From Candidatus Saccharimonadota bacterium (lineage in GTDB: Archaea; Nanohalarchaeota; Nanosalinia; Nanosalinales; Nanosalinaceae), in NCBI GenBank assembly GCA_001761425.1, contig CP012986.1:600001-632000 (forward strand): a DNA stretch of 32,000 nt, written 5' to 3'. The stretch's first letter is position 1; each line of letters starts with the position of its first letter. Positions 1 to 32,000 of this stretch are shown here, one piece after another. The position numbers were made by a program, and so were the translations under genes. The notes under the pieces are model-generated. The model did no database searches, was not told where the DNA came from, and worked only from the letters and a program-made list of their open reading frames with translations.

Positions 1-529
1 CTACGAACTCAGATACGTTTGATCGGGAAAGTGAGTTCTCACTGTTTTCAGGGATCTCTGCTGTCATGATTACTGTTGAGTCGGATTTCCTGAGCATTTT
101 GACCAAGTCCTGAAGGTTTCTTCTGACTTCAAATTTGTCGCCCCAGTAAGTGGTGAAGACGCTCATCGAGTCCAGTATCACCCGGTCATAGTCTCCGCTG
201 TGAAGTAACTGTTTAACCTGTCCAGAAAGATACTGGTTTTCAGACGGCTCACTGTACTCCATCCTGAGATCTCCCTCATCCTCATGCTTCCTAAGATCCC
301 ATCCAAATACAACAGCATCATCCCTGATAGCTTCGATAGGCTCCTCAGTAGAAATATACAGACATTTCTGCCCCTTACTGATTCCCTCCATCAAGAACTG
401 GTTACAGAAAGTAGTCTTACCCGTACCTGTACCGCCTGAGATCAAAGTAACAGAACTCTCCGGAAAACCACCGTCAATCAAATCATCAAGGCCTTCAATC
501 CCCGTCGTAATTCTCTCAACTTCAGTCAT
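1..529 (-). CDS. KaiC/RadA-like RecA-superfamily ATPase (partial; C-terminus runs off the window start)
   Basis: Reverse-strand ATG at 529-527. My translation is MTEVERITTGIEGLDDLIDGGFPESSVTLISGGTGTGKTTFCNQFLMEGISKGQKC..., with the KaiC-domain TGIxGLD motif and a Walker A (GGTGTGKT). No stop occurs before position 1. The ORF is absent from the track because it is open-ended. Confidence 0.8.
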   Translation of the reverse strand, partial: MTEVERITTGIEGLDDLIDGGFPESSVTLISGGTGTGKTTFCNQFLMEGISKGQKCLYISTEEPIEAIRDDAVVFGWDLRKHEDEGDLRMEYSEPSENQYLSGQVKQLLHSGDYDRVILDSMSVFTTYWGDKFEVRRNLQDLVKMLRKSDSTVIMTAEIPENSENSLSRSNVSEFV

Positions 530-550
530 AAGCTAGTTTACTACTTCCCT

Positions 551-560
551 GTTTAAATTT
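551..560 (-). promoter_or_regulatory. TATA-like box for the KaiC-like gene
   Basis: gtttaaattt (TTTAAA core) lies about 26 nt upstream of the reverse-strand ATG at 529, the spacing expected for an archaeal leaderless promoter. Confidence 0.4.
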
Positions 561-715
561 CTTACAAAAAAAGACGGCCATTCCAAACCTTTTGAACAGA
601 TAAAATATATCCGGTAGTTGAAAACAAGATTCGATCATATTTGTGGGAGAGGCCGAGGTACTGACTCATCCTTGTTTTCCTCTACTTTTATCTCGGTTAT
701 ACTTCTCTGGCAGAA

Positions 716-725
716 AATTTTAATT
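716..725 (+). promoter_or_regulatory. TATA-like box for the AI-2E permease gene
   Basis: aattttaatt is centred about 28 nt upstream of the ATG at 749. Confidence 0.45.
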
Positions 726-748
726 CATTCATGTTCTAAAACCAGTTC

Positions 749-1750
749 ATGGAGTTTGACCGGCAGAACGCGTTTATCTATTCAGCTACTGTCTTAATCG
801 CGTTCATCTGTTTCCTGATGATATCTCCATACATAGGATACCTTCTCTCAGGCCTTCTACTTGCTTTCGTAACCTATCCTCTGTTCCAGAAGTTTAGAGA
901 AAAACTCGGGCCTCACATCTCCGCCACCCTGGTCCTCGTTGTAACAGTTTTCATGGCGATCCTGCCTTTCCTGATACTTCTCGGAGCCGTCGGAGGAGAC
1001 GCAGCACAGCTTGTCTCAAACATCAATACTACAGAAGGCCTTGAAACCATAGAAACTGCTGAACAGCTAATCACCCGGTACACAGGACAGAACGTCGATC
1101 TCCAGCAGAGAGCAGGAAACCTTGTCGGTCAAGTAGCATCCACACTGCCATCCAGCCTTTCATCTGTTATAGGCCTTGCAGCAGACCTGTCAATAGGTAT
1201 CTCTCTCATGCTCTTCCTGCAATTCTACGCCCTGAAAGACGGTAAAAAAATGATCGACTGGACCAAAAAATTCGACTACATAACAACGGAAAGACAGGAC
1301 ATGCTCTACACATCCACCGCCAGATCGGTATGGTCAGTCGTCAAAGGACACGTCCTCATGGCATTCACACAGGGAATACTCTCAGGCATAGGCCTCTGGA
1401 TCTTCGGAGTACCGAACATCCTGTTCTGGACATTCATGATGATACTGCTCGGATTCATACCCATCGTCGGAGCAGCCCTCATCTGGGCGCCAGCAGCCTT
1501 ATTCCTCATGCTAGAAGGACAGATAACATCAGGAGTCCTACTACTTATCTACGGAACAGTAATAGTAGGAGGAAGCGACAACCTGCTCAGACCCCTCGTA
1601 GTAGACGACGAAGCAGACATACACCCATTCTTCATCCTCATAGGCCTCATAGGAGGAGTAGGCCTCTTCGGACCCGTAGGCCTCTTCCTGGGACCAGTAA
1701 TCTTTGGAATCCTCAAAAACCTCCTCGACATAATCCTTCAAAAACAGTAG
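749..1750 (+). CDS. AI-2E family transporter (PerM/UPF0118-like permease)
   Basis: 333 aa polytopic membrane protein. The length, the TM pattern and the glycine-rich C-terminal helices (LIGLIGGVGLFGPVGLFLGPVIFG) are typical of AI-2E/PerM permeases. Confidence 0.85.
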   Translation: MEFDRQNAFIYSATVLIAFICFLMISPYIGYLLSGLLLAFVTYPLFQKFREKLGPHISATLVLVVTVFMAILPFLILLGAVGGDAAQLVSNINTTEGLETIETAEQLITRYTGQNVDLQQRAGNLVGQVASTLPSSLSSVIGLAADLSIGISLMLFLQFYALKDGKKMIDWTKKFDYITTERQDMLYTSTARSVWSVVKGHVLMAFTQGILSGIGLWIFGVPNILFWTFMMILLGFIPIVGAALIWAPAALFLMLEGQITSGVLLLIYGTVIVGGSDNLLRPLVVDDEADIHPFFILIGLIGGVGLFGPVGLFLGPVIFGILKNLLDIILQKQ

Positions 1751-1859
1751 ATCCCCCCAGAACACGAAAAAACCTCATGGTAAAGGCCTCCACAACTTCG
1801 AGCGCAACATTTATAAATGCCGGATCGTAAAGAATAAATATGAGTCACGCAGCACACAC

Positions 1860-2235
1860 CGCAACAAGCGGAACGCACCTGTCAACCAATCGCTGTGTGA
1901 CCTTTATCTATCAAGTGTTTTCCATTCCGAATATCCTGTATAACTGATACAGGATAAGTAGGTTGGGACGACCTGGCCTGGCTCACAACTCAGTGGGCCC
2001 CGGGCAAAAGGACTCAACCGAAAAACGTCGGACATCAACTTCCGAACAAGAATTCCAACACTAAACAAACAACATACCAACACAGCAACAGCTACATCGC
2101 TTCGAACACACAAAGGCCTCCGACTGACGGATGCGAAAACACAAAACAAGCACAGAAAACTTCAAACCAAAGGTGATTGCCAGAACACACGCCATAAACG
2201 CGTAAACAACCATAAATCTTCCCTTTATTTTTTCA
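1860..2235 (+). ncRNA. Candidate structured ncRNA, locus A (unknown family)
   Basis: About 560 bp without a credible ORF. Elements in order: TATA-like aataaatatg (1832-1841), CAGCACACA (1850-1858), hairpin cctgtat/atacagg (1935-1953), and a conserved core at 1958-1997 shared with 3468-3509. An A/C-rich tail follows, ending in the T-run tttatttttt (2225-2234). Strand and ends are approximate. Confidence 0.3.
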
Positions 2236-2323
2236 TCTCTCACACTTTTCAACTATTTCTTACCTGGATTTTTGAAGGCCTTTTTCCTCCTGTTTTTAAG
2301 TTTCGGAACCTGGTTTGTATTCG

Positions 2324-2602
2324 ATGGCTGAGGATGAGATGTCCCGTTCTGAACGGGAGAACCTGCATAAATGGGGCAAGGCCCGCAGAATGATTGATGA
2401 GAACAAACTCGATCTGAAATCGCGTTCCAGGGACAGGTATCAGTACGAGGTCGAGGGAGATACTGACACGTATACTGTAGGAGTGGATATTGATTCCGGG
2501 AAGACTTTCTGTCCATGCCCTTTCCAGGGTGAGACATGTTCCCACCAGATTGCGGTGCATATCCATCTTTCAGGGATAGGCGTAGAGAAGGAAAGCTACT
2601 AG
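2324..2602 (+). CDS. SWIM zinc-finger domain protein (small)
   Basis: Contains CPCPFQGETCSH, which fits the CxCxnCxH SWIM signature. The track ORF starts at TTG 2315. The ATG at 2324 is preferred because it lies about 27 nt downstream of gtttttaag. Confidence 0.6.
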   Translation: MAEDEMSRSERENLHKWGKARRMIDENKLDLKSRSRDRYQYEVEGDTDTYTVGVDIDSGKTFCPCPFQGETCSHQIAVHIHLSGIGVEKESY

Positions 2603-2652
2603 AAACAATTTGAAAGATCTTTTTAGACAAGTTTCTGTTCTTTCCCGAGTGA

Positions 2653-2660
2653 GTTTTAAA
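2653..2660 (+). promoter_or_regulatory. TATA-like box for the DUF502 gene
   Basis: gttttaaa lies about 28 nt upstream of the ATG at 2685. Confidence 0.45.
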
Positions 2661-2684
2661 CAGGAACAGGTTAAGTTATAGTTT

Positions 2685-3338: not shown

Positions 3339-3379
3339 ACAGAGAAAAATATATAATACACAGCACACAAATACTTGGT

Positions 3380-9716: not shown

Positions 9717-10766
9717 GTGAATAAATCTGGAGATGTGAGGATAGTTCATACTGCGGACGTCCATCTCTCACAGGACCACCCTGAGAGGACGGAAGCGCTT
9801 GAAGAGATCATAGAAATATGTGAAAAAGAAAAGGCCGAACTACTTCTGATCACGGGAGACCTCTTCGATGCAAACGTAAATATAGAAAATTTGAAGACCG
9901 AAGTAAGGCCTCTATTCTCGGAAAACAGTTTCCAGACACTTGTAATACCTGGAAACCACGATAGATCCGCCTTCAGACAGGAGGATTACTTCGGGGAAGA
10001 CATCGAAATCCTGCAGGACAAAACTTACTCACAGAAACTGTTCGACGATGTAAACATAGTATCACTGCCTTATACTAGTAAATCTTTCTCGGAGCTTGTT
10101 CAGCCTCTTTCAGAAGCCGTCGAGGAGGACAGGGAAAATATAATGATGATTCACTGTACACTGGCAGGAGCTTCAGGAGGCTTTGGAGAGGAGACAGAAT
10201 ATCTTCCTGTAAAGCCTTCGGAGATAGTTCAGACAGGTTTTGACTACGTTCTAGCCGGACACATCCATTCATCGGCGACAAGAAAAACCTTTGGACAAAC
10301 CACTTTCGCCTACTCCGGATCACCTGTCTCCATATCAAGCACCGAGATAGGAAAGAGAAAAATCTGGATCCTGGATACAGAAAAAGGCCTGGAAACCCGC
10401 GAAATCGACACAGAATACTTCATAAGAAAGGAAAAAGAGCTTCTGCCCGGAGAGGAAGAAAAAATAGAGGAGGAGATAGAAGAGGATCTGGAGGAAAAAG
10501 ACCTGGAAAAGGCCTCAGTTAAAGTAAAGATCCGGGGATTTACAGAGGAGAATGTAGAAGAAATTTCAGAAAGGGTCGAGAAAACACTGAAAGGCCTTGA
10601 TCCTGCGGAGGTCAGCGTTGACACATTGAATCTTGAATCTGTTTCCTCGATTGTAGATTCGGAGATCTACAGAGAGTTCAGGAGGAAGATGGAGGAAAAA
10701 AGCTTTGAAAACCCGGAGGAAGTCGAGGAAAAGTTTTTGAGAGGTCTTTCAAGACATGAGCGATAA
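9717..10766 (+). CDS. Mre11/SbcD-family metallophosphoesterase nuclease
   Basis: Calcineurin-like phosphoesterase motifs occur in order: HTADVHL, GDLFD, GNHD, IHCT, GHIH. Acidic C-terminal tail. The start is GTG at 9717 or GTG at 9735 (MRIVHTADVHL). Confidence 0.9.
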   Translation: MNKSGDVRIVHTADVHLSQDHPERTEALEEIIEICEKEKAELLLITGDLFDANVNIENLKTEVRPLFSENSFQTLVIPGNHDRSAFRQEDYFGEDIEILQDKTYSQKLFDDVNIVSLPYTSKSFSELVQPLSEAVEEDRENIMMIHCTLAGASGGFGEETEYLPVKPSEIVQTGFDYVLAGHIHSSATRKTFGQTTFAYSGSPVSISSTEIGKRKIWILDTEKGLETREIDTEYFIRKEKELLPGEEEKIEEEIEEDLEEKDLEKASVKVKIRGFTEENVEEISERVEKTLKGLDPAEVSVDTLNLESVSSIVDSEIYREFRRKMEEKSFENPEEVEEKFLRGLSRHER

Positions 10767-12726
10767 ACTGGAGATCAAGAAAGTGGATATAAGTCATTAC
10801 GGACCGGTTCATGACCTGGAACTGGATATAGGGGAGGGCCTGAACGCCTTCTACGGGAAGAACGAGTCAGGTAAGACATTGATCGTCGAGGCCCTGACAA
10901 AGATGCTTACAGAAGATTCCTCCGATTTTGACGGGATCGGCCGTGTCCCTCAACAGCCTAACGGCCTTCTAACCGTGGAAAAAGATGGCAGAGAGTTCGA
11001 TGTTTCCCAGGAAAGCCTTGGAGAGATATTCGGTGACGTGACTGCTGGAGATATCAGGAACGCGTTTGTTGTCCGGGACTTTGATCTCAGGCTTCCGGAG
11101 AGGGAAAACGATTTCGGCAACGGCGATTACTTCAAAGACGTGACCGACAGGGTTCTCGGCTCGAAGACCCAGAAAATAGAATCTCTGCGAAGTGAAATAT
11201 CGGATGTAGGCTTCCTGACCAACAAAACCAGTGAAGCAGGCCTTGAAAACAGGAAAAGTTCAGGAAAACTGGCTGACAGGAAAGAGAAAGCCGAAAGCCT
11301 GAGAAACGAGATCGAAGAATTCACGGATCAAGTCGAAGAGGAAGACCTTTACGGGAAGTACTCGAAGATAGACTCTCTGGAGAAAAAGATAAATTCGAAA
11401 CACAGAGAAATAAACGAGCTGGAAAACGCCAGGAAACAGAAAAAACACGGTAAAGGCCTTCAACTACTGAAAAATCTCAGACAGGCAGAGGAAAAAATCC
11501 AGGAAATCAAAAAGGAGAGACACGGATTCGAGGAACTGGACGAACTCAGGAAAAAAGCTGAGGCCTTCCAGGAAAAAGAGGTAAAGGTCCAGGGTTCAAA
11601 AACAGGAGCTCTGGTATCAGGCCTTGTATCTCTGAGTGCCTTCACCGCAGCCGCGTTCAACCCTGTACTCCTCGTTATCGGTGCAGCCGTTGTTTCCCTA
11701 TTCGTCGCAGCTTTCTTCGCTGAAAAATACAGGAGAAGTTCAAAGCAGGTCAGGAAGCAGGAGAAAGAAAAAGAAAAAATTATAGAAAATGCAGAGGCCA
11801 GAGAAATCGAAACTTCTTCAATACCTGGCGTTGTCAAAGCAGTGGACAGCTACGAGGAAGAACTGGATAGAAAAGAGAAAAAAGCCGACAAAAGGAAAAG
11901 CCAGACACTGGGCGAGCTTAAAGGCCTTTTCAACGCTGACCTGGAGAGCATAGAGGACTGGCAGAAGGAGCTGGACAGTTTCTCCAACAGTTTTGAATCT
12001 GTCGACCGACAGTTCGAAGAAGGAGACCTCGAAAAAGCTGAAAAAAACGTTGAAGAGCTTGAAACGAAGAAAGAAAGTCTTGAAGAAGACATAGAAGAAT
12101 ACGATGAAGTGATCGCCAATTTTGACACAGCTATTTCGGATGCGATAGCCGAAAGGTTCGTGGAGAACGAGGTAGTTGACCTGGCTACTGTCCAGGATCT
12201 TGATAAGGCCTTGAGGCAGCTAGATGAATTTATCTCGACTCTTGAAGACGGTGTTCAGGCCTCTGTTGATGCTATCAGTGTGCTTGAAGAGATGGAGGAG
12301 GAAGAGGAGGATGAGTTCAACAAAGTGTTCGATGAGGGCAGTTATGCTGTCGAAATGTTCAGGGAGGCGACAGACAGTAACTACACTGATATAAAGTATG
12401 ATAAGGCCTCTAGGAAGATCAAGGTCGTGCGTAAGGATGATAGAGAGCTTGAGCCGGAGGCCCTGAGTCAGGGGACGTATGATCTTCTGTACATGGCTGT
12501 CAGGTTGAAGCTTGCGAAAGAGATTCTTGGAGGTCCTGGCTTCCTGATACTGGATAATGCCTTCGTTCACTCGGATAGAGAAAGAGTGGAAAAAGAGATC
12601 GAGTTCCTGGAAAAACTTGAGGATGAAGGATGGCAGATAATCTATTTCACGTTTAGAGATGACGTAAGAAAGATTCTCGAGGAAAGAACAGAAGTTGAGG
12701 ACCTTGAAGGCCTTCAATTCCAGTAA
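10756..12726 (+). CDS. Rad50/SbcC-like SMC-family ATPase, atypical (hydrophobic hairpin in the coiled coil, no CxxC hook)
   Basis: Walker A GKNESGKT at the N-terminus, long K/E-rich coiled coils, and a C-terminal signature-like LSQGTYD plus Walker B FLILDNAF. It overlaps the upstream gene by 11 nt. Residues 284-322 are hydrophobic. Confidence 0.85.
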   Translation: MSDKLEIKKVDISHYGPVHDLELDIGEGLNAFYGKNESGKTLIVEALTKMLTEDSSDFDGIGRVPQQPNGLLTVEKDGREFDVSQESLGEIFGDVTAGDIRNAFVVRDFDLRLPERENDFGNGDYFKDVTDRVLGSKTQKIESLRSEISDVGFLTNKTSEAGLENRKSSGKLADRKEKAESLRNEIEEFTDQVEEEDLYGKYSKIDSLEKKINSKHREINELENARKQKKHGKGLQLLKNLRQAEEKIQEIKKERHGFEELDELRKKAEAFQEKEVKVQGSKTGALVSGLVSLSAFTAAAFNPVLLVIGAAVVSLFVAAFFAEKYRRSSKQVRKQEKEKEKIIENAEAREIETSSIPGVVKAVDSYEEELDRKEKKADKRKSQTLGELKGLFNADLESIEDWQKELDSFSNSFESVDRQFEEGDLEKAEKNVEELETKKESLEEDIEEYDEVIANFDTAISDAIAERFVENEVVDLATVQDLDKALRQLDEFISTLEDGVQASVDAISVLEEMEEEEEDEFNKVFDEGSYAVEMFREATDSNYTDIKYDKASRKIKVVRKDDRELEPEALSQGTYDLLYMAVRLKLAKEILGGPGFLILDNAFVHSDRERVEKEIEFLEKLEDEGWQIIYFTFRDDVRKILEERTEVEDLEGLQFQ

Positions 12727-21455: not shown

Positions 21456-24026
21456 GTGAAGACTCAAAAAGCAAAGAATCTTGACCAGGTCTACGAAGAA
21501 GTCAGAGAATATGACCTGGTTATCACCGCAGAGGCCTCGACAGCTGACTCACTGAAGCGGAGACTTGAAGAAACCAAACTCGGCAGATTCGCAGTCACAC
21601 CTCAGAGACTGGCATACGGCGACGAACTCGCAGAAGAAGATTTCAAGCGAGACATATTTCTCAAACTCGTCAAAGAAGAAGGCCTTCGCTGGAAACAGGC
21701 ATCTTACCTTCTCAGGAACGCTATAAGCTGCTGGAAAGAATGCGGAGACCTAGAAAAAGTGAAAGAACACGGCTTCACAGGCGAGGCAATGGAGAAAGTC
21801 ATAAAGATCCTGCAAAATACTGACAACCCGCTCAAAGCCCTGGAAAATTACAGAGTCCCGGAGGATAAAAATGTGGCGGTCCTGGCACCTTACCAGTTAA
21901 ACGAACTGGATAAAAAAATCCTGCCGGACGATTACGAGGAGATAGGCCTCTTCCTTGACGATGAACAGGATTTACCGGAGTTCAAGGTCTTTAATTCATC
22001 GAACGAGCTGATACAGGCCCTGAAAGAAAGTATAGAAAAAGTGGGGCCTCAGAACGCCGGTGTCGTCGTCGATCCTTCTTCCGGTTACCAGGCCTTGCTT
22101 GAGTCTGCTCTGGAGTCCTCTGATATTCCCTATCTGAAGCAGCAGGATCTTTCTGAGGACGAGGATCTGAGGACTTTTCTCTCCCTGATGCGTACAGGCC
22201 TCTCTTCGAAGCGTGTGCGTGTGAAAGATATAAGACCTGTTTTACAGGAGTTGAACGTGCCTGTCTCCTCCGTTGAGAGCGAGAAGTTTATCGAGGATCT
22301 TGAGGAGGGAAGGCTTCAGGAGTTCAGAGATGTTTTCTCAATGATGCAGCATCTGCCGTTCGAAGAAGTGGTGAGAAAGTACGAAGAGTTCACAGGGAGA
22401 CATCTCGGACCGGTGAAATCTATACTGAGTGAGCTTGACGTCGAAGATGAAATGGTCTCAGAGGCACGTATAAACCAAATAGAGTATTACCTAGACAGTT
22501 TCGCACCAAGCGAAGACATAGAGGAGGACGGGGTTCTGTTCGCCGATCCGAAAAAGGTCTCACGTGTTGACAGACCGGCAGTCTTTTTCGTTGGCATGGA
22601 TACAGAATGGAGACAGGAGCCTGAGAACCTGGCATGGATAGATCAGGAGAAAAGGGAAAAAGAGAATTTGAAAGACTTCAGATCGCTGCTTCAGAGCGGG
22701 AAACCGGTTTTCATGGTCCAGGACAGGGAGATGAACGAGGACATCAAGCCCTGCTTCTATCTCAACGAGCTGATCGATGAAGATTTCCAGAACTTCCGCC
22801 AGCTACCGCACAGACGTGTAAGGCCTGAAGAGACAGAGACAGAGACAGGCTTCGAACGCCAAGGCCTGGAAATCGAACAGGAAGAAGTGGAGGTCCTGAG
22901 CCAGTCCTCTCTCAATGATTTTGCGATGTCCCCACGCTACTACTACATCTCCAAACTTGTCTCCGACGTCGATGAAGAAGCCCTGGAAAAAGGAAACCTG
23001 TTCCATGACTACGCAGAGTTCTACGTCAACTATCCAGGCTTTATGGACGATAAAGGAGATGAAGAAGTCATCAGTTTCATGATGAACAGGATAAGGCCTT
23101 TTGCCGATGACCTGGATCTTGAGAAGCTGGAGACAGAGTTCAAGGTAGGCCTGAAAAATATCAGAGAGTTCATCAAGAACAGAGATATCTCGAGAGAGGA
23201 GATAGACGGCTACGAGAAAAAAGACAGGGATGAAAACGTGTTCTCAGAGGAGTACGGAAAACCGGTCCGGTCAAAGATAACAGAACTCTGGTTCAAGGAC
23301 AAGGATCTGGGAGGTAAGGGAAAAATCGATTTCCTCCAGGACCAGCAGAACCTTATCGATTACAAGTCAGGGAGAAGAAAATCTGAGAAAAAAGTCGTCA
23401 AGAAATCAAAAGTCGCTTTACACGGCGACGAGCAGTATCCTAACTTCCAGGCACCGATGTACCTAGCCTACCACCGCAAAAAGAACCCCGGAGAAAAAAT
23501 TAACTTCACATTCTTCCATTTCCTCGACAACCTCGGCGATGAGGTAACAGGTAAGGCCTCAAACGGCGATAACGTTGTAACAGTTACATACTACCCGGAA
23601 AAATTCAGCAAAGCGGTCGCATCCAACCAGGCCTTCGAACTACTGATAAAAGACGTTGCGAAGAGCAACGACCGGAGGAAAACCCTGGAAAAACTTGGCT
23701 GTCACCAGTTCAAAAAGTTCATGGAGGAAAACGAGTTCCCGAAGACGCATGACAAGAAAGAGGTTCTGGCCTCCAAGTTCGCCGAGGATTTCAAGGCCTA
23801 TGCGAAGAAAGAGGTAGGAGACTACAAATACGTGAAAAACGGGGTTAAATCCGCGTTAAAAAAACTCGTTGAGTTCCACACCGAGAACTATTTCAGGGAT
23901 GATATTGATCTCTTCGAGGAGTTTCTTGAGGAGAAGCTGGAGGAGTTGAACGATTACAGAGGAACCAGGTTCCCACTGGATGCAAAAGCAGATAACATAC
24001 CTGAAAGAGACCTGATAGTCAAATGA
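21456..24026 (+). CDS. AddB-like protein: degenerate helicase-like N-terminus plus C-terminal PD-(D/E)xK nuclease
   Basis: 856 aa. I found no Walker A. The C-terminal nuclease motifs are ELWF...GKIDFL...LIDYKSG...FQAPMYLAY (E, D, DxK, QxxxY). GTG start. It is ATGA-coupled to the helicase gene that follows. Confidence 0.7.
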   Translation: MKTQKAKNLDQVYEEVREYDLVITAEASTADSLKRRLEETKLGRFAVTPQRLAYGDELAEEDFKRDIFLKLVKEEGLRWKQASYLLRNAISCWKECGDLEKVKEHGFTGEAMEKVIKILQNTDNPLKALENYRVPEDKNVAVLAPYQLNELDKKILPDDYEEIGLFLDDEQDLPEFKVFNSSNELIQALKESIEKVGPQNAGVVVDPSSGYQALLESALESSDIPYLKQQDLSEDEDLRTFLSLMRTGLSSKRVRVKDIRPVLQELNVPVSSVESEKFIEDLEEGRLQEFRDVFSMMQHLPFEEVVRKYEEFTGRHLGPVKSILSELDVEDEMVSEARINQIEYYLDSFAPSEDIEEDGVLFADPKKVSRVDRPAVFFVGMDTEWRQEPENLAWIDQEKREKENLKDFRSLLQSGKPVFMVQDREMNEDIKPCFYLNELIDEDFQNFRQLPHRRVRPEETETETGFERQGLEIEQEEVEVLSQSSLNDFAMSPRYYYISKLVSDVDEEALEKGNLFHDYAEFYVNYPGFMDDKGDEEVISFMMNRIRPFADDLDLEKLETEFKVGLKNIREFIKNRDISREEIDGYEKKDRDENVFSEEYGKPVRSKITELWFKDKDLGGKGKIDFLQDQQNLIDYKSGRRKSEKKVVKKSKVALHGDEQYPNFQAPMYLAYHRKKNPGEKINFTFFHFLDNLGDEVTGKASNGDNVVTVTYYPEKFSKAVASNQAFELLIKDVAKSNDRRKTLEKLGCHQFKKFMEENEFPKTHDKKEVLASKFAEDFKAYAKKEVGDYKYVKNGVKSALKKLVEFHTENYFRDDIDLFEEFLEEKLEELNDYRGTRFPLDAKADNIPERDLIVK

Positions 24027-26764
24027 CAGAAGAATCACGTGAGGTCAGTCCTAACAGGCAACAGCAGAAACTTATAGATAACATTGAAGGCCTTTACCTG
24101 GTAAACGCCGGTGCAGGGACTGGAAAAACTTTTACTATAACTCATCGCTACATCGAGATACTGGATGAGGTGGAGCCGGAGGATATCTTCCTTGCTACCT
24201 TTACAAGGAACGCTGCGGACGAGATGGCAGAGAGGATTGTATCAGAATCTGATTACCAGGCCTCGGATATCTGGGATGCTCCGATCTCGACTTTTCACAG
24301 TCACTGCCAGAAGATACTGGAGAGAAACGGCTTTTCAGTGCCGGAGGAACTGGGAATCCAGGACAGCATAGAGAACATCGATGTCCTGGAAAGCCAGATA
24401 CGTGAACGCCAGGAATTCCACCGGTTCATGGACCGATTTATAGAAAACAACCCTGAGTACTCAAATTTCTACAGGATCTCACGTAACTACGATAATTTCC
24501 TGCACCTGATCAAATCCCTGGCCTCCAAAGGCATTATACCGGAGAAAGAAGGATGGTACCGCGACACAGAGGCCTTCCTCAACGGAGATAAAAAAGAGTT
24601 CATGGAGCTGTTCGAGGAAGCAAACAGGCCAAGACACAGCAGTAACGGCAAGAGACAGAGCGATCTTCGAAACAGGCTCTACAGCTACAGGTACAAGAAC
24701 TTTCCCGAAGACGCGCCGGAGGGAGAGGAAGTCCGCGGAGGATACGGTACAAAAACTGTGAGAAAGGATTTTGGGGAAAAGGCCTTTGAAGAGGATAGAG
24801 AAGAACTCAAGGCCTTTGTACATGATCTTTACTTCGAGTACGTCCGTTACTGTCTTTCAAGAAACTATCTTAATTTCTCGTTCCTGATGATGTTCGCCTA
24901 CGTCCTTCTGAGAGAAAATGAGTACGTCAGGAGGCAGGAGAGCTTCGAGTATATGATGATTGACGAGTTTCAGGATACTAACCCCCTCCAGTTCAAGCTT
25001 GCGTTGCTTCTGGCGGAGAGGCCTAATATAGCGGTTGTAGGTGACTGGAAGCAGAGTATTTACAGTTTCCAGTATGCTTCTGTAGAAAATATTCAGGAGT
25101 TCCGTCAGCGCCTGAAAGATTTCAGGGATGAGCTGAATCAGGAGAGGGAGAGAGTGAGTTTTTCCGTCGAAGGCGTCGAGGAGATCGAGCTGAGGAAAAA
25201 CTACCGCTCCACCCAGGACATACTGGACTATGCGGAGCAGAGTCTCCAGTTATCTGCGAATAAGTACGAGGAGGTCGATGAAAAAGATGTTACAGGCCTT
25301 GAATCTGAGATAGAGAATCAGGAGTCAAGTATTGAGAAATACATTGCTGAGGAAGAGGTAGAGGCCGTGCTGACAGAGATCCTTGAGATAGTTGACAACG
25401 AGGATTACAGGTATGGAGACGAGAACAAAAAGCTGGATTTCAGGGATATAGCAGTTCTGACCCGTACCCGTGGTTTCGGCCTTCAGCTCCAGGAGGAGGC
25501 CCGTGAACACGGTATCCCCGTCGCCTATGAGGGAGGTGTAGAACTTTTCAAGACGAATCCTGCGATCCTTCTCCTCGCGTGGCTCCGCGTACTTAACAAC
25601 GAGGATTCCAGGAAGGGCTGGGCTGTGATCCTTGAAGAAGCCGGTTACAGGCTTGAAGAAGCAAAGAAAATTCTCGATCCCGAGGAAGAAGAATACAAGT
25701 ATCCCGAGGATATGGAAGAGTTCCGGGAGCGTCTGGAAGGCCTTGAATCGATAAGTTCTGTAGCGAGAACGGTCTTCCACAGGTATGGATATTCGAACGC
25801 ATTCACTGACAAAATAATAGAAGTTCTAAGCAATGTTTTCACGTCAAGCTACATGAATCTAGGTGAACTGATCCAGTTCATACAGGAGAATATCGAGGAA
25901 AACGAGATATACGAGGTCGATTCATCGCGTAACAGGAATACCGTCAAAATACAGACGATACACGCAGCGAAAGGCCTTGAGTACCCTGCTGTCTTTATCT
26001 CGGACGTGAACCAGGGAAAGTTCCCGTCGAAGAACTCTGATTCCAAGGCTATCACCTATGCGGATCCTGTAGGCCTCAGGCAGAGAAAAATCTACAGGAA
26101 CGGAGGCCTTGCATTTGAGTATGATAACTGGAGGACTGAGATCCTCATGAAATGTCTTTCCGGGAACTACGATGAAGAGAGAAGGCTGATGTACGTCGCC
26201 ATGACCAGGGCACAGCAGCATCTCTTTATCACAGCGGAGAAGGATCGGGGATCAACGTTCTTTGAAGGCCTCAGTGGAGAACCGGAGCTGCTGGAAGCTG
26301 ATGTCGAGGATGTAAAAGTCGATAAAGAGGACCTGGAAGTATTCGAAGTGGAGAGTGTAAACTCAGAAAGAAATGAGCTGAGATCCGTCCATTCAGAACT
26401 TGATGTGGTTGAAGGAGATAAGGAAAAAGGCAACGGTCTACATGAGTTCGCTGAGGCCTATGCTAACGGAGAGGATGTAGAGGCCTCGAACAGCAGGGAA
26501 AAAGAGGTCAAGGAATTTATAGATTCCCTGGAAGGTGAGTTAGAGGCTGAAAAGCATGTCAGCATACCGGTTGACGGAAAAGTCTATGAAAGCGTGATAG
26601 ACCTGGTACACGTGACTGAGGAGAAAGTTGAGGTCATAGATTACAAGACGGACTCAAATCCTGATAACATGAAGGAGTACCAGAAACAGGTCGAATGCTA
26701 CAGGAAAGGCCTTGAACAAATATTTGACAGGCCTGTGGAGAAAAGGATAGTGACTCTGGAATGA
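24023..26764 (+). CDS. AddA/UvrD-family SF1 helicase with C-terminal PD-(D/E)xK nuclease
   Basis: Helicase motifs: GAGTGKT (I), MIDEFQDTN (II), VGDWKQSIYSFQYA (III), NYRS (IV), IHAAKGLEYPAVFI (V), LMYVAMTRAQQHLFI (VI). The C-terminal nuclease has GLHEFAE...IDLVH...VIDYKTD...QVECY. Confidence 0.9.
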   Translation: MTEESREVSPNRQQQKLIDNIEGLYLVNAGAGTGKTFTITHRYIEILDEVEPEDIFLATFTRNAADEMAERIVSESDYQASDIWDAPISTFHSHCQKILERNGFSVPEELGIQDSIENIDVLESQIRERQEFHRFMDRFIENNPEYSNFYRISRNYDNFLHLIKSLASKGIIPEKEGWYRDTEAFLNGDKKEFMELFEEANRPRHSSNGKRQSDLRNRLYSYRYKNFPEDAPEGEEVRGGYGTKTVRKDFGEKAFEEDREELKAFVHDLYFEYVRYCLSRNYLNFSFLMMFAYVLLRENEYVRRQESFEYMMIDEFQDTNPLQFKLALLLAERPNIAVVGDWKQSIYSFQYASVENIQEFRQRLKDFRDELNQERERVSFSVEGVEEIELRKNYRSTQDILDYAEQSLQLSANKYEEVDEKDVTGLESEIENQESSIEKYIAEEEVEAVLTEILEIVDNEDYRYGDENKKLDFRDIAVLTRTRGFGLQLQEEAREHGIPVAYEGGVELFKTNPAILLLAWLRVLNNEDSRKGWAVILEEAGYRLEEAKKILDPEEEEYKYPEDMEEFRERLEGLESISSVARTVFHRYGYSNAFTDKIIEVLSNVFTSSYMNLGELIQFIQENIEENEIYEVDSSRNRNTVKIQTIHAAKGLEYPAVFISDVNQGKFPSKNSDSKAITYADPVGLRQRKIYRNGGLAFEYDNWRTEILMKCLSGNYDEERRLMYVAMTRAQQHLFITAEKDRGSTFFEGLSGEPELLEADVEDVKVDKEDLEVFEVESVNSERNELRSVHSELDVVEGDKEKGNGLHEFAEAYANGEDVEASNSREKEVKEFIDSLEGELEAEKHVSIPVDGKVYESVIDLVHVTEEKVEVIDYKTDSNPDNMKEYQKQVECYRKGLEQIFDRPVEKRIVTLE

Positions 26765-27704: not shown

Positions 27705-28156
27705 ACCTTATAATAACTCTATTCGCAGCACTTTCGGCATTGATTACCACGCTCATATTCTATTACAACCTGAAGATCGTCAATAAATTCAGAGAGGACG
27801 AAGAACTCACAGCAACAAAACTCGTGATCAAGGAAAGAGTACCAGACGCGTTCATGGCACTGTCAATATCATCACTGTTCTTCTCACTGGGAGCCTTCAT
27901 AGGAGCAACACTCATACTGTTCAGACTCCAGATATTCCAGTACTTCACAGAAATAGGGATCATCACCATGCTCGTAGGCCTGCTGACATTCATGAAAAGA
28001 ATAAGCGATGCAGTAACCGAAGGAAAGAAAGACGAAGTAGAAAACGAACAGAGAAAAGAAGAAAAATCAGAGCCTCAGGAAGACGAGAAAGAAAACATGG
28101 AAACCGAAAACGAGAAAGCCTCGAAAAAAGACTCTGAAGAAGAAAAAGAAGAATAA
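27701..28156 (+). CDS. Small 3-TM membrane protein (paralog 2) with E/K-rich tail
   Basis: I prefer the start at ATG 27701, which overlaps the upstream stop as ATGA. Three TM helices are followed by a low-complexity tail of about 45 aa rich in Glu and Lys. Confidence 0.55.
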   Translation: MNLIITLFAALSALITTLIFYYNLKIVNKFREDEELTATKLVIKERVPDAFMALSISSLFFSLGAFIGATLILFRLQIFQYFTEIGIITMLVGLLTFMKRISDAVTEGKKDEVENEQRKEEKSEPQEDEKENMETENEKASKKDSEEEKEE

Positions 28157-28162
28157 AGGCCT

Positions 28163-28957
28163 TTACCAGGGAGCGAACTCTGGATCTACCCTTCTATCTC
28201 TTCTCTCAAGGCCGTCGATCTTCTCGATGTCTTCCTCATCAAGTTCAAGGTCCAAGGCCCTGTAATTGTCCTCTATATGTTCTTCAGAAGTTGCCTTGGG
28301 AATCACAACAACATTGTCTTTCTGCATCAGCCAGGCAAGTGAAACCTGTGCAGGAGAAACACCGTGTTTCTCTGCGATATCTCTAAGCTCCGGGATCTCG
28401 AAGACCTTACCTCTCGCAAGAGGAGAGTAAGCCACCAGATAGATATCATGTTCTCTGCATTTCTCCAGGATCTCTTCCTGCTGGAGCAGAGGATGCATCT
28501 CAACCTGGTTCGCAACAATATGCTCGCCAGCAATCTCCATAGCCTCATCCACCTGCTCCGGTTCAAAGTTACTGATACCGATGTTATCGATTCTTCCCTC
28601 CTCTACAAGCTCCCTGAACGCACCCAGAGTCTCCTCAGGCCTGTAATCACCGGAAGGCCAGTGAACATACATCAAGTCAACGGAATCAACGCCAAGCTTA
28701 TCCAGACTCTCCTCTGTCGAGGCCTTAACCTTCTCAGCCGAGAGCTTATTGATCCAGACCTTTGAAGCAAGGAAAAAATCCTCTCTGTCTACATCCGCTG
28801 CTGAAAGGCCTTCGCCGACATCTTCCTCGTTGCTGTAGGCCTGGGCGGTATCGATATGCCTGTATCCCATGTCCAGCGCGGTTTTAACTGATTCACTGCA
28901 TTCTTTTGGGTTTGAGTTCTGCCAGGTGCCGAGACCAAGCTCAGGTATCTCTTTCAT
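28163..28957 (-). CDS. Aldo/keto reductase (DkgA-like)
   Basis: LGLGTWQ, GYRHIDTAQAY, LASKVW, LMYVHWP, IGISNF, NQVEMHP and VIPKATSEEHIEDN are canonical AKR motifs. I trimmed the start to MKEIPELGLGTWQ (ATG at 28957). The 61-aa upstream extension in the track is Cys/Ser-rich and not AKR-like. Confidence 0.93.
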   Translation of the reverse strand: MKEIPELGLGTWQNSNPKECSESVKTALDMGYRHIDTAQAYSNEEDVGEGLSAADVDREDFFLASKVWINKLSAEKVKASTEESLDKLGVDSVDLMYVHWPSGDYRPEETLGAFRELVEEGRIDNIGISNFEPEQVDEAMEIAGEHIVANQVEMHPLLQQEEILEKCREHDIYLVAYSPLARGKVFEIPELRDIAEKHGVSPAQVSLAWLMQKDNVVVIPKATSEEHIEDNYRALDLELDEEDIEKIDGLERRDRRVDPEFAPW

Positions 28958-29362
28958 AACACCAAGAAGAGGCCTCAGTGCTTTTACCTCTTGCTTTATT
29001 CTACCGGAACTGCCGGAAAGCTGTCTCTTTTCGTTTTTAATAGGGGGTTCGAATAATGAGGTGAGGGGAGAACAAATGAAACACATTGAGAAGGGGGAAC
29101 TTGACTTTCCAACACAGAAAACGCCGTTCGAGGCCTTCAACTCCAGGATAGAGGAGGGAACTATATGAGAGCCGAGGAGTTCCGGAGCCTTGAGGCCTTG
29201 CCAGGTGATCCTGATGAGGATCTGTCCGGATTAAGAAGGAGGTTTGCCATAAAGCTGAGGAGGTCTTTCGCCCGGGTATCTGGGTAGAGTCCTTCCCAAA
29301 GCTTTCTTTTTCCTACCGGAAACGGCGAAATTCCCTTAAGATTTGAGGTTTAATTACGGGTT

Positions 29363-30370
29363 ATGATTGTCCAGGATGCACGTGTTCTGCGCGATGACTT
29401 TATCCCGAAAGAGGTTGTCCACAGAGATTCCGAGGTACAGGAGCTTTCAAGAGCTCTGGAACCGCTGGTGGAAAATGAACAGGCGCGCAACATACTTCTG
29501 TACGGGCCTCCAGGAACAGGGAAAACCTGTCTTTCACAGTACGTCATGGAAAAACTGGAGGAGGAACTCCTTGACTTTAACTACATGTATATCAACTGCT
29601 GGGAAAACTACAACAGGTTCAAAGTCCTTTATAAAGCGTTAGAAGGAGTCGGGAAGACTTTACACGTCCACAGACAGTCAACACCTACAGATGAACTTTA
29701 TTCAAAGCTGAAAGATTACGACAGGGCACCTTATGTACTGATACTTGATGAGGTCGACCAGTTAGAGGATGAAAAAGTCCTTTACGATCTTCAAGGCCTT
29801 AACAACGTACATATCGTGATGATAGCGAACACCCAGGAATCTGTTTTCTACAACATGGATGACAGAGTCAGAAGCAGACTGATCGACTCGAAGAGAATCC
29901 AGTTCAAGGCTTACACCTCTGATCAGTTACAGGATATACTCATGGACCGTGCGGAGTGGGGTCTAGATTCTTCTGCTGTCGATTCTTCTCTTATCAAAAA
30001 GATCGCTCTCTCCTCGGAAGGTGATGCACGCATAGCGATTGGAGTTCTACGTGCAGCGGCCAGGATGGCTGAGGAAAGAGATAAGAAAGAGATTACCCGG
30101 GATATGATACAGGAAGCAGTTCCAGAAGCGAAGGACAACAACAAGAAGAAAAACGAAGAGAAACTGAACAACCACCAGGAGAAACTGTACGAAATAGTAA
30201 ACGAGGAAGAAGAGATCCAGCCCGGCGATCTCTACGAAAAATACAGAGAAGCCATGGATGAACCGAAAAGCGACAGGATGCTCAGAAAATACCTTCAGAA
30301 AATGGATCACTACAACCTGATAGAAGCCGAAGGAGAAGGTCGCTGGCGAAAATATCGGTCAGTGGAATGA
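29363..30370 (+). CDS. orc1: Orc1/Cdc6 replication initiator
   Basis: DDFIPKEVVHRDSE, LLYGPPGTGKT (Walker A), LILDEVDQL (Walker B), GDARIAIGVLR (sensor 2) and a C-terminal winged helix. At 335 aa it is short for the family. Confidence 0.93.
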   Translation: MIVQDARVLRDDFIPKEVVHRDSEVQELSRALEPLVENEQARNILLYGPPGTGKTCLSQYVMEKLEEELLDFNYMYINCWENYNRFKVLYKALEGVGKTLHVHRQSTPTDELYSKLKDYDRAPYVLILDEVDQLEDEKVLYDLQGLNNVHIVMIANTQESVFYNMDDRVRSRLIDSKRIQFKAYTSDQLQDILMDRAEWGLDSSAVDSSLIKKIALSSEGDARIAIGVLRAAARMAEERDKKEITRDMIQEAVPEAKDNNKKKNEEKLNNHQEKLYEIVNEEEEIQPGDLYEKYREAMDEPKSDRMLRKYLQKMDHYNLIEAEGEGRWRKYRSVE

Positions 30371-30777
30371 AAAAAGGAAGCTACATACTCCTCATAGAAC
30401 TGGAGGAAAAAGAAACAGTAAAAATAGGTCCTGGAAACCGGGAACTAGAGAAAGGATTCTACACCTACTTCGGCACTGCATTCGGACCCGGAGGCCTCAA
30501 AAGAGTAGAAAGACACAGCAAACAGGCCTCAGGAGAAAAAAATGTAAAACACTGGCATATCGACTACCTGACAACCCTGGAAAAATCAAGGATGATCAAG
30601 GCCGTGAAATTCCCGGAGAAAGACCTTGAATGCGAACTCGCATCTCAGGCACAAAACATGATAGAGGCCTTCGGATCCACAGACTGTAAATGCGGTTCAC
30701 ACCTCGCATACTTCCATGAAAGAGAGGAAGGAGAGGCCCTTCTGGAGAAGATGAAAGCGAAATACCTTAATTCTTAA
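30367..30777 (+). CDS. DUF123 protein (GIY-YIG nuclease superfamily)
   Basis: KGSYILLIEL...GFYTYFGTA...KHWHIDYL is the characteristic DUF123 pattern. ATGA overlap with the orc1 stop. Confidence 0.85.
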   Translation: MKKGSYILLIELEEKETVKIGPGNRELEKGFYTYFGTAFGPGGLKRVERHSKQASGEKNVKHWHIDYLTTLEKSRMIKAVKFPEKDLECELASQAQNMIEAFGSTDCKCGSHLAYFHEREEGEALLEKMKAKYLNS

Positions 30778-30802
30778 ATCCTGAGACCTTTCCCTCTGTT
30801 AA

Positions 30803-30943
30803 GGGCTCTTAGTTCAGTCTGGCAGAACGCCTGCTTCGCAACACCACTTGCTTGAATCTAGGTGAAAGCTGGAGGTTAGAGAAGAACAAAGATCTTCAAA
30901 GCGGAATAGCAGGAGGCCTCGGGTTCAAATCCCGAAGGGTCCA
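30803..30943 (+). tRNA. tRNA-Ala(CGC): tRNA-Ala (anticodon CGC) with an intron of about 67 nt at the canonical 37/38 position
   Basis: Hand fold: acceptor GGGCUCU/AGGGUCC including the G3:U70 alanine identity pair, D arm GUUC-AGUCUGGCA-GAAC, anticodon stem CCUGC/GCAGG with loop UUCGCA[intron]A, T arm UCGGG-UUCAAAU-CCCGA, discriminator A. CCA is not encoded. TATA-like ttaattcttaaat lies about 28 nt upstream. Confidence 0.85.
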
Positions 30944-31094
30944 AATTTATTTCGTCCAGGATTTGATATCCTCCGAGAAGATTCTCTGATCTTCGGACGG
31001 GTTCAAATCATCGAAAATTTCCCTGAGAAATTTTCTGGAGATGCAGAAACTCTGCGAGTTTCGAATCCCGAAGAGTCCAAGTTTATTCCGTCCA
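30920..31094 (+). repeat. Direct repeats derived from the tRNA-Ala 3' end plus downstream flank
   Basis: 30920-30958 and 31055-31094 align with 34 of 39 positions identical plus one 1-nt indel. A third partial copy at 30998-31009 (cgggttcaaatc) is identical to 30920-30931. Confidence 0.75.
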
Positions 31095-31109
31095 TGACTT
31101 TTCCTGGTT

Positions 31110-31469
31110 CTATGCAAGGTTTTCAGGCAATCTGTAGAACAGGTTTTTCCGCGGGTATGATTCGTTCGGCAGGTCCACATGTTTGACCTCTCTTTCAAGG
31201 AGTCCCTGTTCCACTGCTCCGTTCAACAGGTTTTCAAGCCGGTTCCAGTCACTTTCTCCAGCGATCTGTGCCGGTACCCCGCTGTATTCCCCGGTTTCTG
31301 CGTATTTTTCTCTAAGCTTTTTCATCGCGTCCAGAGTGTTGAACTCGTTTTCCTGTATATGACTGGAGTAAAGCCTGTCTCCTGAGTTGTAAAGGCCTCC
31401 AAGATCTTCTACCAGGTTATGTGCTGTATACTGTCCTGTATCTGCGTCCTGAGTTTCTGTGCCTGACAT
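31110..31469 (-). CDS. Hypothetical protein
   Basis: 119-aa ORF of acidic composition. No motif recognised. Confidence 0.5.
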   Translation of the reverse strand: MSGTETQDADTGQYTAHNLVEDLGGLYNSGDRLYSSHIQENEFNTLDAMKKLREKYAETGEYSGVPAQIAGESDWNRLENLLNGAVEQGLLEREVKHVDLPNESYPRKNLFYRLPENLA

Positions 31470-31592
31470 GGGAAAGTAGATATATACCTCACAGTTTAAA
31501 AAGTATTACGTCGTAATATCTTTTCTCTGCGTTCTACTTTACCGGGAAAACACAGGCCTTGATCTGGGAGGGGGATAGTTGATTTACAAAGG

Positions 31593-31602
31593 TTTTATTT
31601 AA
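31593..31602 (+). promoter_or_regulatory. TATA-like box
   Basis: ttttatttaa lies about 27 nt upstream of the ATG at 31624. Confidence 0.45.
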
Positions 31603-31623
31603 GGCCTTACGGAAGTTAGATGT

Positions 31624-32000
31624 ATGTCATCTAGTATTCAGGAGTTGCTGGCGGATGGTGAGCAGGTTCAGGTAAGGACCAGTCCATCCATCATGGATTC
31701 GAGTTTTGTAAAGAGCTATGTTGTTGCCTCTGTACTGGCGATAGGCATCTTTGTGACTTCTGTCCTGCCTATCCAGTTGCCGTTCAATAGCCTCTACTTG
31801 AACGTTTTGCTGGTTCTCCCTCTTGGTATTGTTTTGAAGTCGGAGGTTGAGAGAAGGTTTATCAAGTACTTTGTCACCAGTCAGAAAGTTATCGAGAGAA
31901 GAGGAATGCTTAGTCAGACGACGGAAAGCACGATGTATGAAAATATTACAGATGTCAAGCTGAGTAAAGATATCAACGAAAGACTTTTCGACGTCGGAGA
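31624..32000 (+). CDS. Membrane protein with bacterial-type PH domain (bPH_2/YdbS-YdbT-like), partial
   Basis: My translation is MSSSIQELLADGEQVQVRTSPS...(two TM helices)...RRFIKYFVTSQKVIERRGMLSQTTESTMYENITDVKLSKDINERLFDVG. It fits the bPH_2 pattern (Y.vT..ri....G.......i.y..I.dv). The ORF is open at the window end. Confidence 0.65.
   Translation, partial: MSSSIQELLADGEQVQVRTSPSIMDSSFVKSYVVASVLAIGIFVTSVLPIQLPFNSLYLNVLLVLPLGIVLKSEVERRFIKYFVTSQKVIERRGMLSQTTESTMYENITDVKLSKDINERLFDVG

Follow-up and report, generated by a model that had tools for sequence, protein, structure and literature searches.

Dense iteration of the palindrome AGGCCT in Candidatus Nanopetramus SG9 and related Nanohaloarchaeota

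The stretch of DNA analyzed here, 32,000 bp of contig CP012986.1 (hereafter termed the window), belongs to the 1.1-Mb genome of Candidatus Nanopetramus SG9 (SG9), a member of Nanohaloarchaeota from halite nodules of Salar Grande, Atacama (bioRxiv 10.1101/029934). This assignment comes from the AddA-like helicase, which matches AQV86_03240 of Nanohaloarchaea archaeon SG9 at 100% identity, and the presence of an orc1/cdc6 gene identifies the sequence as archaeal. In total, 32 genes were called, which cover 86% of the window. Dispersed among and within them is the palindromic hexamer AGGCCT, which occurs at exactly 143 sites, or one per 224 bp, in intergenic DNA as well as in genes of either strand, where it takes all three codon phases. 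An earlier note, made by reading the sequence alone, had estimated ~140 sites at one per ~225 bp, which is very close to the exact count. The paper describing the SG9 genome is silent on palindromes, methylation and restriction (bioRxiv 10.1101/029934).

Abundance, codon context and spacing of AGGCCT

The window has a G+C content of 46.4%, slightly higher than the 44-45% given in the earlier note. From this base composition 6.6 AGGCCT sites are expected, and dinucleotide-preserving shuffles of the window gave 7.45 ± 2.56 sites with a maximum of 14, such that none of 100 shuffles reached 143. The proposed ~20-fold excess over about six expected sites therefore holds, and AGGCCT ranks first in frequency among all 4096 hexamers of the window. 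An order-4 Markov model, which had been suggested as a check, returned an expectation of 136.6; this value is circular because AGGCCT dominates its own sub-words, and the check is thus uninformative and would have misled. As had been noticed, GGCC is rare in other contexts: 143 of the 210 GGCC tetramers of the window fall inside AGGCCT, and the remaining NGGCCN contexts are rare. The flanks are indeed biased, with weak and symmetric preferences at positions ±1 and ±3, and AAGGCCTT is the most frequent AGGCCT-containing octamer (44 of 177 sites over 40 kb). Beyond ±1 the flanks contain almost no information, which argues that no larger repeat unit surrounds the hexamer; AGGCCT lacks the conserved sequence past the core that characterizes dispersed repeat elements, such as repetitive extragenic palindromes (REP) and miniature inverted-repeat transposable elements (MITE).

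Within coding sequences (CDS) of the window, the hexamer occupies all three codon phases, as claimed before, with 63 sites encoding X-Gly-Leu, 39 encoding (Lys/Glu/Gln)-Ala-X and 20 encoding Arg-Pro. Synonymous-codon shuffles, which swap codons among identical amino acids and thereby preserve both proteins and codon usage, yielded 18.3 ± 3.9 sites with a maximum of 29, compared to 122 observed; the codon-preserving test that the earlier note had called for does not reproduce the enrichment. Codon-order shuffles of the same genes yielded 8.9 ± 3.0 sites. We define an opportunity as a place where the amino-acid sequence allows AGGCCT through synonymous codon choice. AGGCCT fills 121 of 160 opportunities in the window, 181 of 235 over 49.6 kb of SG9, and 574 of 754 (76%) over 150 kb of six loci from genomes that possess the dense array, here termed trait-bearing as opposed to trait-free. 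The site density in the window is 4.7 per kb in non-coding DNA versus 4.4 per kb in coding DNA, and the corresponding values pooled over trait-bearing loci are 5.75 and 4.35 per kb. Codon, amino-acid or dipeptide usage as the cause is ruled out by the shuffles and the non-coding density. Gly-Leu and Arg-Pro dipeptides are over-represented; as this excess is missing from trait-free orthologues, it is a consequence of AGGCCT rather than its cause. Altogether, a force on the DNA itself, not on codons or peptides, maintains about one AGGCCT per 220 bp in SG9 and its relatives.

Comparison of related genomes revealed how individual sites persist. SG9 and its relative L008 share 82% mean amino-acid identity, with an identity at four-fold sites of 0.48. 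Despite this divergence, 59 of 80 AGGCCT sites (74%) are common to both. The corresponding share is 24% when every aligned hexamer window is counted, and the median over frequent hexamers is 27%. In the more distant pair of SG9 and L004 (four-fold-site identity of 0.40-0.42), each genome uses about 75% of the 33 opportunities common to both; the jointly used sites number 18, compared to 19 expected under independent use. The conservation in the first pair, together with the independent use in the second, indicates that the sites are continuously kept or re-created in each lineage.

The sites are also more evenly spaced than expected. The coefficient of variation of the gaps is 0.74 in the window versus 0.99 for random placement, and ranges from 0.65 to 0.93 across trait-bearing genomes. 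The mean gaps of six genomes from two clades are 233, 206, 229, 218, 207 and 190 bp. Among the 674 pooled gaps, those shorter than 25 bp occur at 0.44 times, and those longer than 700 bp at 0.40 times, the exponential expectation. Opportunities that lack AGGCCT tend to be nearer to an existing site than those that carry it, with median distances of 69 and 94 bp, respectively (P = 3e-4), and 19% of the unused versus 8% of the used opportunities lie within 30 bp of a site. Non-coding DNA has room for far more AGGCCT, yet its density barely exceeds that of coding DNA. The gap deficits and this modest non-coding density point to a target density with diminishing returns rather than unlimited accumulation: the pressure works against redundancy (gaps <25 bp) as well as against long stretches devoid of sites (>700 bp). 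The site-free gaps of 1-2 kb in trait-bearing loci gave no clear compositional sign of foreign origin.

Distribution of the trait and its imprint on proteins

For the comparison, about 50 kb of the 1,125,078-bp SG9 contig (~4% of the genome) and, from each relative, 16-23 kb around the AddA orthologue were sampled. Among 13 nanohaloarchaeal genomes, seven are trait-bearing and six are trait-free. All seven trait-bearing genomes have about one AGGCCT per 190-230 bp, with an observed-to-expected ratio (o/e) of 20-26, and fall in two non-sister clades. The SG9 clade includes SG9 (4.27 AGGCCT per kb), L008 (4.88 per kb; AddA 85% identical to that of SG9) and L004 (3.89 per kb; 78%). The Nanosalina clade includes Ca. 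Nanosalina sp. VS9-1 (4.49 per kb; AddA 57% identical to that of SG9), L134 (4.71 per kb; 79% to VS9-1) and L135 (5.21 per kb; 77% to VS9-1). The trait-free genomes are Ca. Nanohalobium constans (0.04 per kb), L012 (0.08 per kb), L009 (0.45 per kb), a Nanohalococcus-type genome (L136; 0.31 per kb) and two metagenome-assembled genomes from soda lakes (L003 and L005; 0.18 and 0.05 per kb). Four pooled trait-bearing loci contain 489 sites in 111.5 kb (o/e 21.8), compared to 17 sites in 99.5 kb of five pooled trait-free loci (o/e 0.99); two further trait-bearing loci and one further trait-free locus were sampled outside these pooled counts. In individual trait-free relatives the o/e is 0.3-1.4. 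Every 2-kb bin of the 49.6 kb of SG9 contains 6-13 sites. The flank preference differs by clade, being A..T in the SG9 clade and G..C in the Nanosalina clade.

A neighbour-joining tree of AddA plus AddB (1553 ungapped columns) placed the Nanosalina clade with the trait-free L009 in 100% of bootstraps, and a monophyletic group of all trait-bearing genomes was recovered in 0%. As Nanosalina groups with a trait-free genome, the state of the trait changed at least twice within Nanohaloarchaeota. Such a patchy phylogeny is as would be expected of a mobile specificity gene. In the methylome of Ca. Nanohalococcus occultus, only GDGCHC is methylated, a rare motif with 140 copies (PMC10266531, PMC11001535), which fits the trait-free state of the Nanohalococcus-type genome. 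The two soda-lake genomes (PWHR01000007 and PWHU01000041) are publicly labelled 'Thermoplasmata archaeon'. Their AddA and AddB share 47-48% and 36-39% identity with nanohaloarchaeal proteins, and they root the nanohaloarchaeal tree; they are probably mislabelled relatives of Nanohaloarchaeota.

Further analysis of AddA and AddB revealed that the hexamer has reshaped protein sequences. Motif-compatible peptide contexts occur at 19.8, 19.3, 16.3 and 16.9 per 1000 codons in trait-bearing genomes, compared to 9.7, 9.4, 8.8, 7.2 and 7.2 in trait-free genomes, and 69-83% of them are used for AGGCCT in the former versus 1 of 65 in the latter. In a nine-genome alignment, the trait-free peptides opposite the sites are motif-compatible in just 13-23% of cases, and many sites sit where all other aligned genomes keep a different conserved residue. 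For instance, EGL in the SG9 clade corresponds to EGI or EGV in all six other genomes, and IGL in Nanosalina to IGI elsewhere. TGL or KGL with a site stands opposite TSL or TEL, and KAF with a site opposite KNF, KDF, KQF or KSF; EAW in Nanosalina faces EGW or NGW in seven of the eight other genomes and NSW in one. These site-creating replacements are mostly at different positions in the two clades; the sites common to both clades are mainly where the ancestral peptide already permitted AGGCCT. The alignment indicates that trait-bearing lineages fixed amino-acid replacements at otherwise invariant positions, creating sites where no opportunity existed. A DNA-level signal can thus override protein conservation, with invariant residues replaced for a 6-bp site. 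The selection at the DNA level suggested in the earlier note is supported by the excess that survives codon shuffles and is equally strong in non-coding DNA, by the use of 76% of opportunities, by the altered proteins and by the hyperconservation of sites.

The features of the window are listed in Table 1. The sites singled out in the earlier note are as described there. Those at 1642, 1660 and 1678 take the phase xxA-GGC-CTx (hyphens mark codon boundaries) and encode Gly-Leu at the 18-bp spacing it gave; the site at 9906 reads AGG-CCT (Arg-Pro) and that at 10510 reads xAG-GCC-Txx (Lys-Ala). The 12-bp palindrome does carry the stop codons of both convergent genes. The site placed in a tRNA variable loop (30914-30919) spans the variable loop and the first T-stem base of tRNA-Ala(CGC), that is, the junction of the two; this tRNA was missed by default ARAGORN and Rfam because of its 67-nt intron. 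Its 3' part is partly duplicated downstream, at 30998-31009 (12 of 12 identical) and 31060-31100 (41 nt, 85%), and the duplicated pieces look like att-type relics of integration at the tRNA. Among the larger genes of the region, orc1/cdc6 has the lowest AGGCCT density. It is followed by a small nuclease-fold gene, of DUF123 type in the SG9 clade and AHJR-like in the Nanosalina clade.

Table 1. Features of the window and related loci
Feature	Coordinates	Strand	Remarks
Array of 143 dispersed AGGCCT	1..32000	.	Mean spacing 224 bp; 122 in CDS
AI-2E transporter gene	749-1750	+	Holds AGGCCT at 1642, 1660 and 1678
Three AGGCCT 18 bp apart	1642..1683	+	IGL/VGL/VGL; glycine-rich membrane segment, AI-2E transporter gene
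AddB-like PD-(D/E)XK nuclease gene	21456..24026	+	12 AGGCCT / 18 opportunities; comparative marker
AddA-like UvrD-family helicase gene	24023..26764	+	16 AGGCCT / 17 opportunities; phylogenetic marker
Perfect 12-bp palindrome TAAAGGCCTTTA	28154..28165	.	Both convergent genes' stop codons inside
orc1/cdc6 gene	29363..30370	+	1 AGGCCT, 3 opportunities, 1.0 per kb
orc1/cdc6-adjacent nuclease-fold gene	window 30367-30777; L011 3341-3814; L134 3250-3588; L135 381-800		
tRNA-Ala(CGC) with 67-nt intron	30803..30943	+	Found by aragorn -i
Anaerovibrio sp. JC8 prophage	L072 1-11862; L137 1-21689		ANBM01000008; AGGCCT concentrated in structural module

The window encodes both a Mre11/Rad50-like pair (9717-12726) and a bacterial-type AddB/AddA-like nuclease-helicase pair (21456-26764). 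AddA orthologues are found in every nanohaloarchaeal locus examined, trait-bearing or not, and AddB wherever the contig reaches. In two trait-free contigs, L009 (15306-22337) and L012 (4414-13085), addA is adjoined by BREX-type defence genes, comprising BrxA, BrxB, PglZ and a DUF1156 / N6_N4 methyltransferase-like gene. A giant open reading frame (ORF; product of at least 3216 residues; L007, 1-7467) ends ~1.8 kb to the left of the window. It has no Pfam match on record, recalls the giant surface (SPEARE-type) proteins described for nanohaloarchaea, and contains 3.7 AGGCCT per kb, like the rest of the genome.

A scan of viral contigs for dense AGGCCT retrieved, among the matches listed, mostly chance matches and tandem repeats. 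One such array (L121, 6700-8430; IMGVR_UViG_2595698529_000001) has a period of 73 bp with two AGGCCT 6 bp apart per unit, in an IMG/VR 'viral' contig rich in TTAGGG-type hexamers, and is unrelated to the dispersed trait. The one dispersed case among these matches is not nanohaloarchaeal, being a siphovirus-type prophage of the bacterium Anaerovibrio sp. JC8 (Negativicutes), with 33 AGGCCT in 21.7 kb versus 3.3 expected; the related Lactobacillus phage PMBT4 shows no excess (6 versus 4.8 expected). The trait may therefore exist outside archaea; the flank of the Anaerovibrio host is too short for judging its own AGGCCT state.

Candidate readers of the palindrome and rival explanations

Strict palindromes of 6 bp are typically recognised by dimeric type II enzymes, either methyltransferases or restriction enzymes. 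We propose that AGGCCT is an iterated palindrome similar to the highly iterated palindromes (HIPs) of cyanobacteria. A lineage-specific factor, most probably a methyltransferase of StuI specificity, would recognise the hexamer, and the density of sites would be held at a set level; this proposal, made by analogy, has in our view about an even chance of being right. That the DNA is under a strong pressure, with a distance-limited optimum and switched on or off between lineages, is observed. In the proposed mechanism, AGGCCT would be the target of a lineage-specific, horizontally mobile, dimeric and sequence-specific factor, most probably an AGGCCT DNA methyltransferase that acts as an orphan enzyme or belongs to a restriction-modification system. 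The (methylated) site would serve a DNA transaction that reaches just a few hundred bases, such as strand or self discrimination in mismatch repair, or the recombination or uptake of homologous DNA. A 4-bp mark, for example GATC, occurs by chance about once per 256 bp, and a 6-bp site therefore needs ~20-fold enrichment for equal coverage; selection would favour this enrichment once an enzyme with a 6-bp specificity had taken on such a role. Selection for coverage might fix new sites, as might repair or recombination biased toward the marked allele, and the two could act together. Nanohaloarchaeal symbionts attach to, and exchange material with, unrelated haloarchaeal hosts. A more specific version, which we consider rather unlikely, is that AGGCCT is a methylation-marked 'self' tag for own-lineage DNA in import or recombination, acquired independently in the two clades and convergent with HIP1. 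If so, the dense mark would let the symbionts repair or recombine with the DNA of their kin and treat host DNA as food, and AGGCCT would be an archaeal DNA uptake or recombination sequence.

Several observations weigh against the methyltransferase proposal. No DNA methyltransferase, restriction enzyme or other reader was found in the ~50 kb of SG9 and the ~20-kb pieces of relatives, as judged by Pfam annotation of every sizeable ORF of the window and the existing annotation of flanks and relatives. None of the one-mismatch neighbours of AGGCCT is depleted in the 111 kb of trait-bearing compared to the 99 kb of trait-free DNA; AGGTCT/AGACCT and AGGCTT/AAGCCT are at 1.62 and 1.17 times their trait-free level, respectively. 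A simple Vsr-type correction of T:G to C:G is therefore not driving the excess, and the depletion of T-containing deamination neighbours that marks very-short-patch (Dcm/Vsr-type) repair is not seen. The 'halo' of neighbours (GGGCCT/AGGCCC and AGGTCT/AGACCT) is wobble variation of the dominant codon phases, and thus gives no indication of which base, if any, is methylated. A full StuI-type restriction system would be paradoxical, since restriction hosts normally avoid their own site. Moreover, the phylogeny of the trait is based on two linked genes, AddA and AddB, and the SG9 DNA examined is ~4% of the genome, though the trait is very uniform.

An uptake, transfer or recombination signal could have spread by molecular drive with no role of methylation, if fragments with AGGCCT were preferentially imported or recombined among cells of one lineage, in the way that uptake sequences spread in Neisseria and Haemophilus. 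The even spacing with scarce long gaps, the same set-point density in two clades and the proteins altered to hold sites, as is known for uptake sequences, speak for it, as do the proposal of HIP1 as an uptake or transformation enhancer (bioRxiv 10.64898/2026.06.24.733823, bioRxiv 10.1101/2024.09.10.611283) and the giant nanohaloarchaeal surface proteins with VirB4/TraG-like ATPase domains, for which DNA import was suggested (PMC10266531, PMC6642349). However, DNA uptake in nanohaloarchaea is a suggestion only, the DNA examined showed no genes for competence or uptake, and the cyanobacterial effect is reported to be methylation-dependent, which merges this explanation with the favoured one. The known uptake sequences, 9-12 nt long, non-palindromic and at ~1 per kb, also compare poorly with a 6-bp palindrome at 4.4 per kb, and we regard this explanation as unlikely. 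The sites might instead be functionless by-products of biased repair or gene conversion, through a methyl- or site-directed ratchet of the kind modelled by Elhai or a very-short-patch-like correction. The Elhai model predicts distance-limited saturation and a patchiness that follows the methyltransferase (PMC4390886); equal density was reached in two independent clades, and trait-bearing genomes have fewer of the other NGGCCN contexts, as though these had been converted to AGGCCT. Nevertheless, the expected Vsr-like substrates, AGGTCT/AGACCT and AGGCTT/AAGCCT, are not depleted, and replacements at invariant positions together with the 74% versus 24% conservation would demand a strong bias. The deficit of long gaps suggests coverage pressure over passive accumulation, although a saturating ratchet could mimic it; on balance such a neutral origin seems quite unlikely.

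Still less probable, in our judgement, is that the array is bound by an abundant dimeric protein, confined to these lineages, that acts in chromatin, DNA architecture or segregation. A palindrome with weakly symmetric, clade-specific flanks (A..T or G..C), covering coding and non-coding DNA regularly and at equal density, is compatible with such a protein. Nevertheless, archaeal nucleoid proteins are not known to recognise strict palindromes of 6 bp, the DNA examined showed no gene for a candidate, and the extrapolated ~5000 strict sites per 1.1 Mb far exceed the number of binding sites in parS and nucleoid-occlusion (Noc, SlmA) systems. A by-product of amino-acid, dipeptide or codon usage, or of dispersed mobile repeat copies, might be suspected from the excess of Gly-Leu and Arg-Pro and from the common context AAGGCCTT. 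Such an origin has a negligible chance and is refuted by the codon-preserving shuffles (18 versus 122) with an equally dense non-coding DNA, by trait-free orthologues that lack the dipeptide excess, and by flanks that show no larger repeat.

Comparison with known iterated motifs

For 30 years, the hyper-abundance of certain palindromes has posed a puzzle, with essentially all known cases coming from a single phylum, the cyanobacteria. A literature search retrieved no paper describing AGGCCT enrichment, nor one on iterated palindromes of archaea, and AGGCCT is the first HIP-type iterated palindrome that we could find in Archaea. It occurs in genomes of ~1 Mb, and sister lineages with and without the trait exist. 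Since the state changed at least twice, a phyletic-pattern screen could find the responsible gene, and the repeated change of state among close relatives makes the function of the palindrome testable by comparative genomics and methylome sequencing. Complete genomes exist for both states, including the trait-bearing Ca. Nanosalina sp. VS9-1 (CP180230), on which the literature search found no paper, and the trait-free Ca. Nanohalobium constans (CP040089) and Ca. Nanohalococcus occultus (CP104395, CP180231) are published co-cultures. The assembly GCA_022729355 is also trait-bearing. In addition, the motif provides a compositional fingerprint by which these lineages can be binned and DNA of recent acquisition recognised.

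The hexamer is the recognition sequence of StuI (AGG^CCT), in agreement with the StuI-type specificity pointed out in the earlier note. Genomes with an active restriction system usually avoid their own site; by contrast, AGGCCT is enriched 20-fold in its nanohaloarchaeal hosts and shows no avoidance. Enzymes that read and methylate this very sequence do exist, as in Alcanivorax borkumensis, where an AGGCCT restriction-modification system with cytosine methylation was described and 1674 sites were reported in the genome (PMC12128166). Archaeal orphan methyltransferases are patchy in distribution or persist within clades, and the persistent ones recognise 4-5-bp sites (PMC10609329). Similar to these and to the Dam GATC mark of gamma-proteobacteria, which serve housekeeping DNA transactions, AGGCCT is spread genome-wide at about one per 250 bp; however, 4-5-bp marks reach this density by chance, whereas AGGCCT does so by ~20-fold enrichment, and the link between them is inferential. 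A Chi-like recombination hotspot for AddAB, which would be non-palindromic, strand-oriented and specific to the AddAB/RecBCD of the lineage, does not fit, as AGGCCT is palindromic and genomes with and without the trait both encode AddAB orthologues.

DNA uptake sequences (DUS) of Neisseria and uptake signal sequences (USS) of Pasteurellaceae are non-palindromic motifs of 9-12 nt at ~1 per kb, often arranged as inverted pairs at terminators and tied to a known competence receptor; to our knowledge, no DNA uptake sequence is known in Archaea. AGGCCT resembles them in its thousands of copies, its even spacing, its presence inside genes at a cost to proteins, and its putative role as a lineage-specific 'self' tag, but differs as a 6-bp palindrome at 4.4 per kb, and thus falls outside the DUS/USS motif type.

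The closest counterparts are HIP1 (GCGATCGC) and the alternate HIPs of cyanobacteria, a parallel that the earlier note did not draw; it named a recognition or uptake signal, a protein-binding site and an epigenetic mark as candidate functions and did not choose among them. The alternate HIPs co-occur with a methyltransferase of matching specificity, and methyl-directed mismatch repair was proposed both as a use of HIP sites and as a ratchet that creates them (Elhai 2015, PMC4390886), whereas the AGGCCT methyltransferase is putative, by analogy. It was also proposed that HIP1 enhances uptake or transformation and is linked to type IV secretion genes; the effect on transformation is reported to depend on methylation (bioRxiv 10.64898/2026.06.24.733823, bioRxiv 10.1101/2024.09.10.611283). 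Compared to HIP1, AGGCCT has an archaeal host (DPANN, Nanohaloarchaeota) instead of a cyanobacterial one, and is a hexamer rather than an octamer, and therefore not HIP1 proper. It reaches ~4400 sites per Mb against 300-2700, nearly saturates the synonymous opportunities, visibly rewrites proteins, and was gained or lost at least twice within one phylum. A periodicity of 18-94 kb is reported for HIP1; the spacing of AGGCCT, known over 50 kb, is locally more even than random. Like the HIPs, AGGCCT is a short G+C-rich palindrome, and its o/e of 20-26, in seven genomes sampled over 16-50 kb each, lies above the 15-fold limit of the class and within the 15- to 300-fold over-representation of HIPs. 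Its excess is present in all frames and in non-coding DNA and is unexplained by codon or amino-acid usage. HIP1 sites are conserved, and their spacing is non-random (Xu et al. 2018, PMC5861425); those of AGGCCT are likewise conserved between genomes above background, at 74% versus 24% in SG9 and L008. Both motifs are lineage-specific with sporadic replacement or loss.

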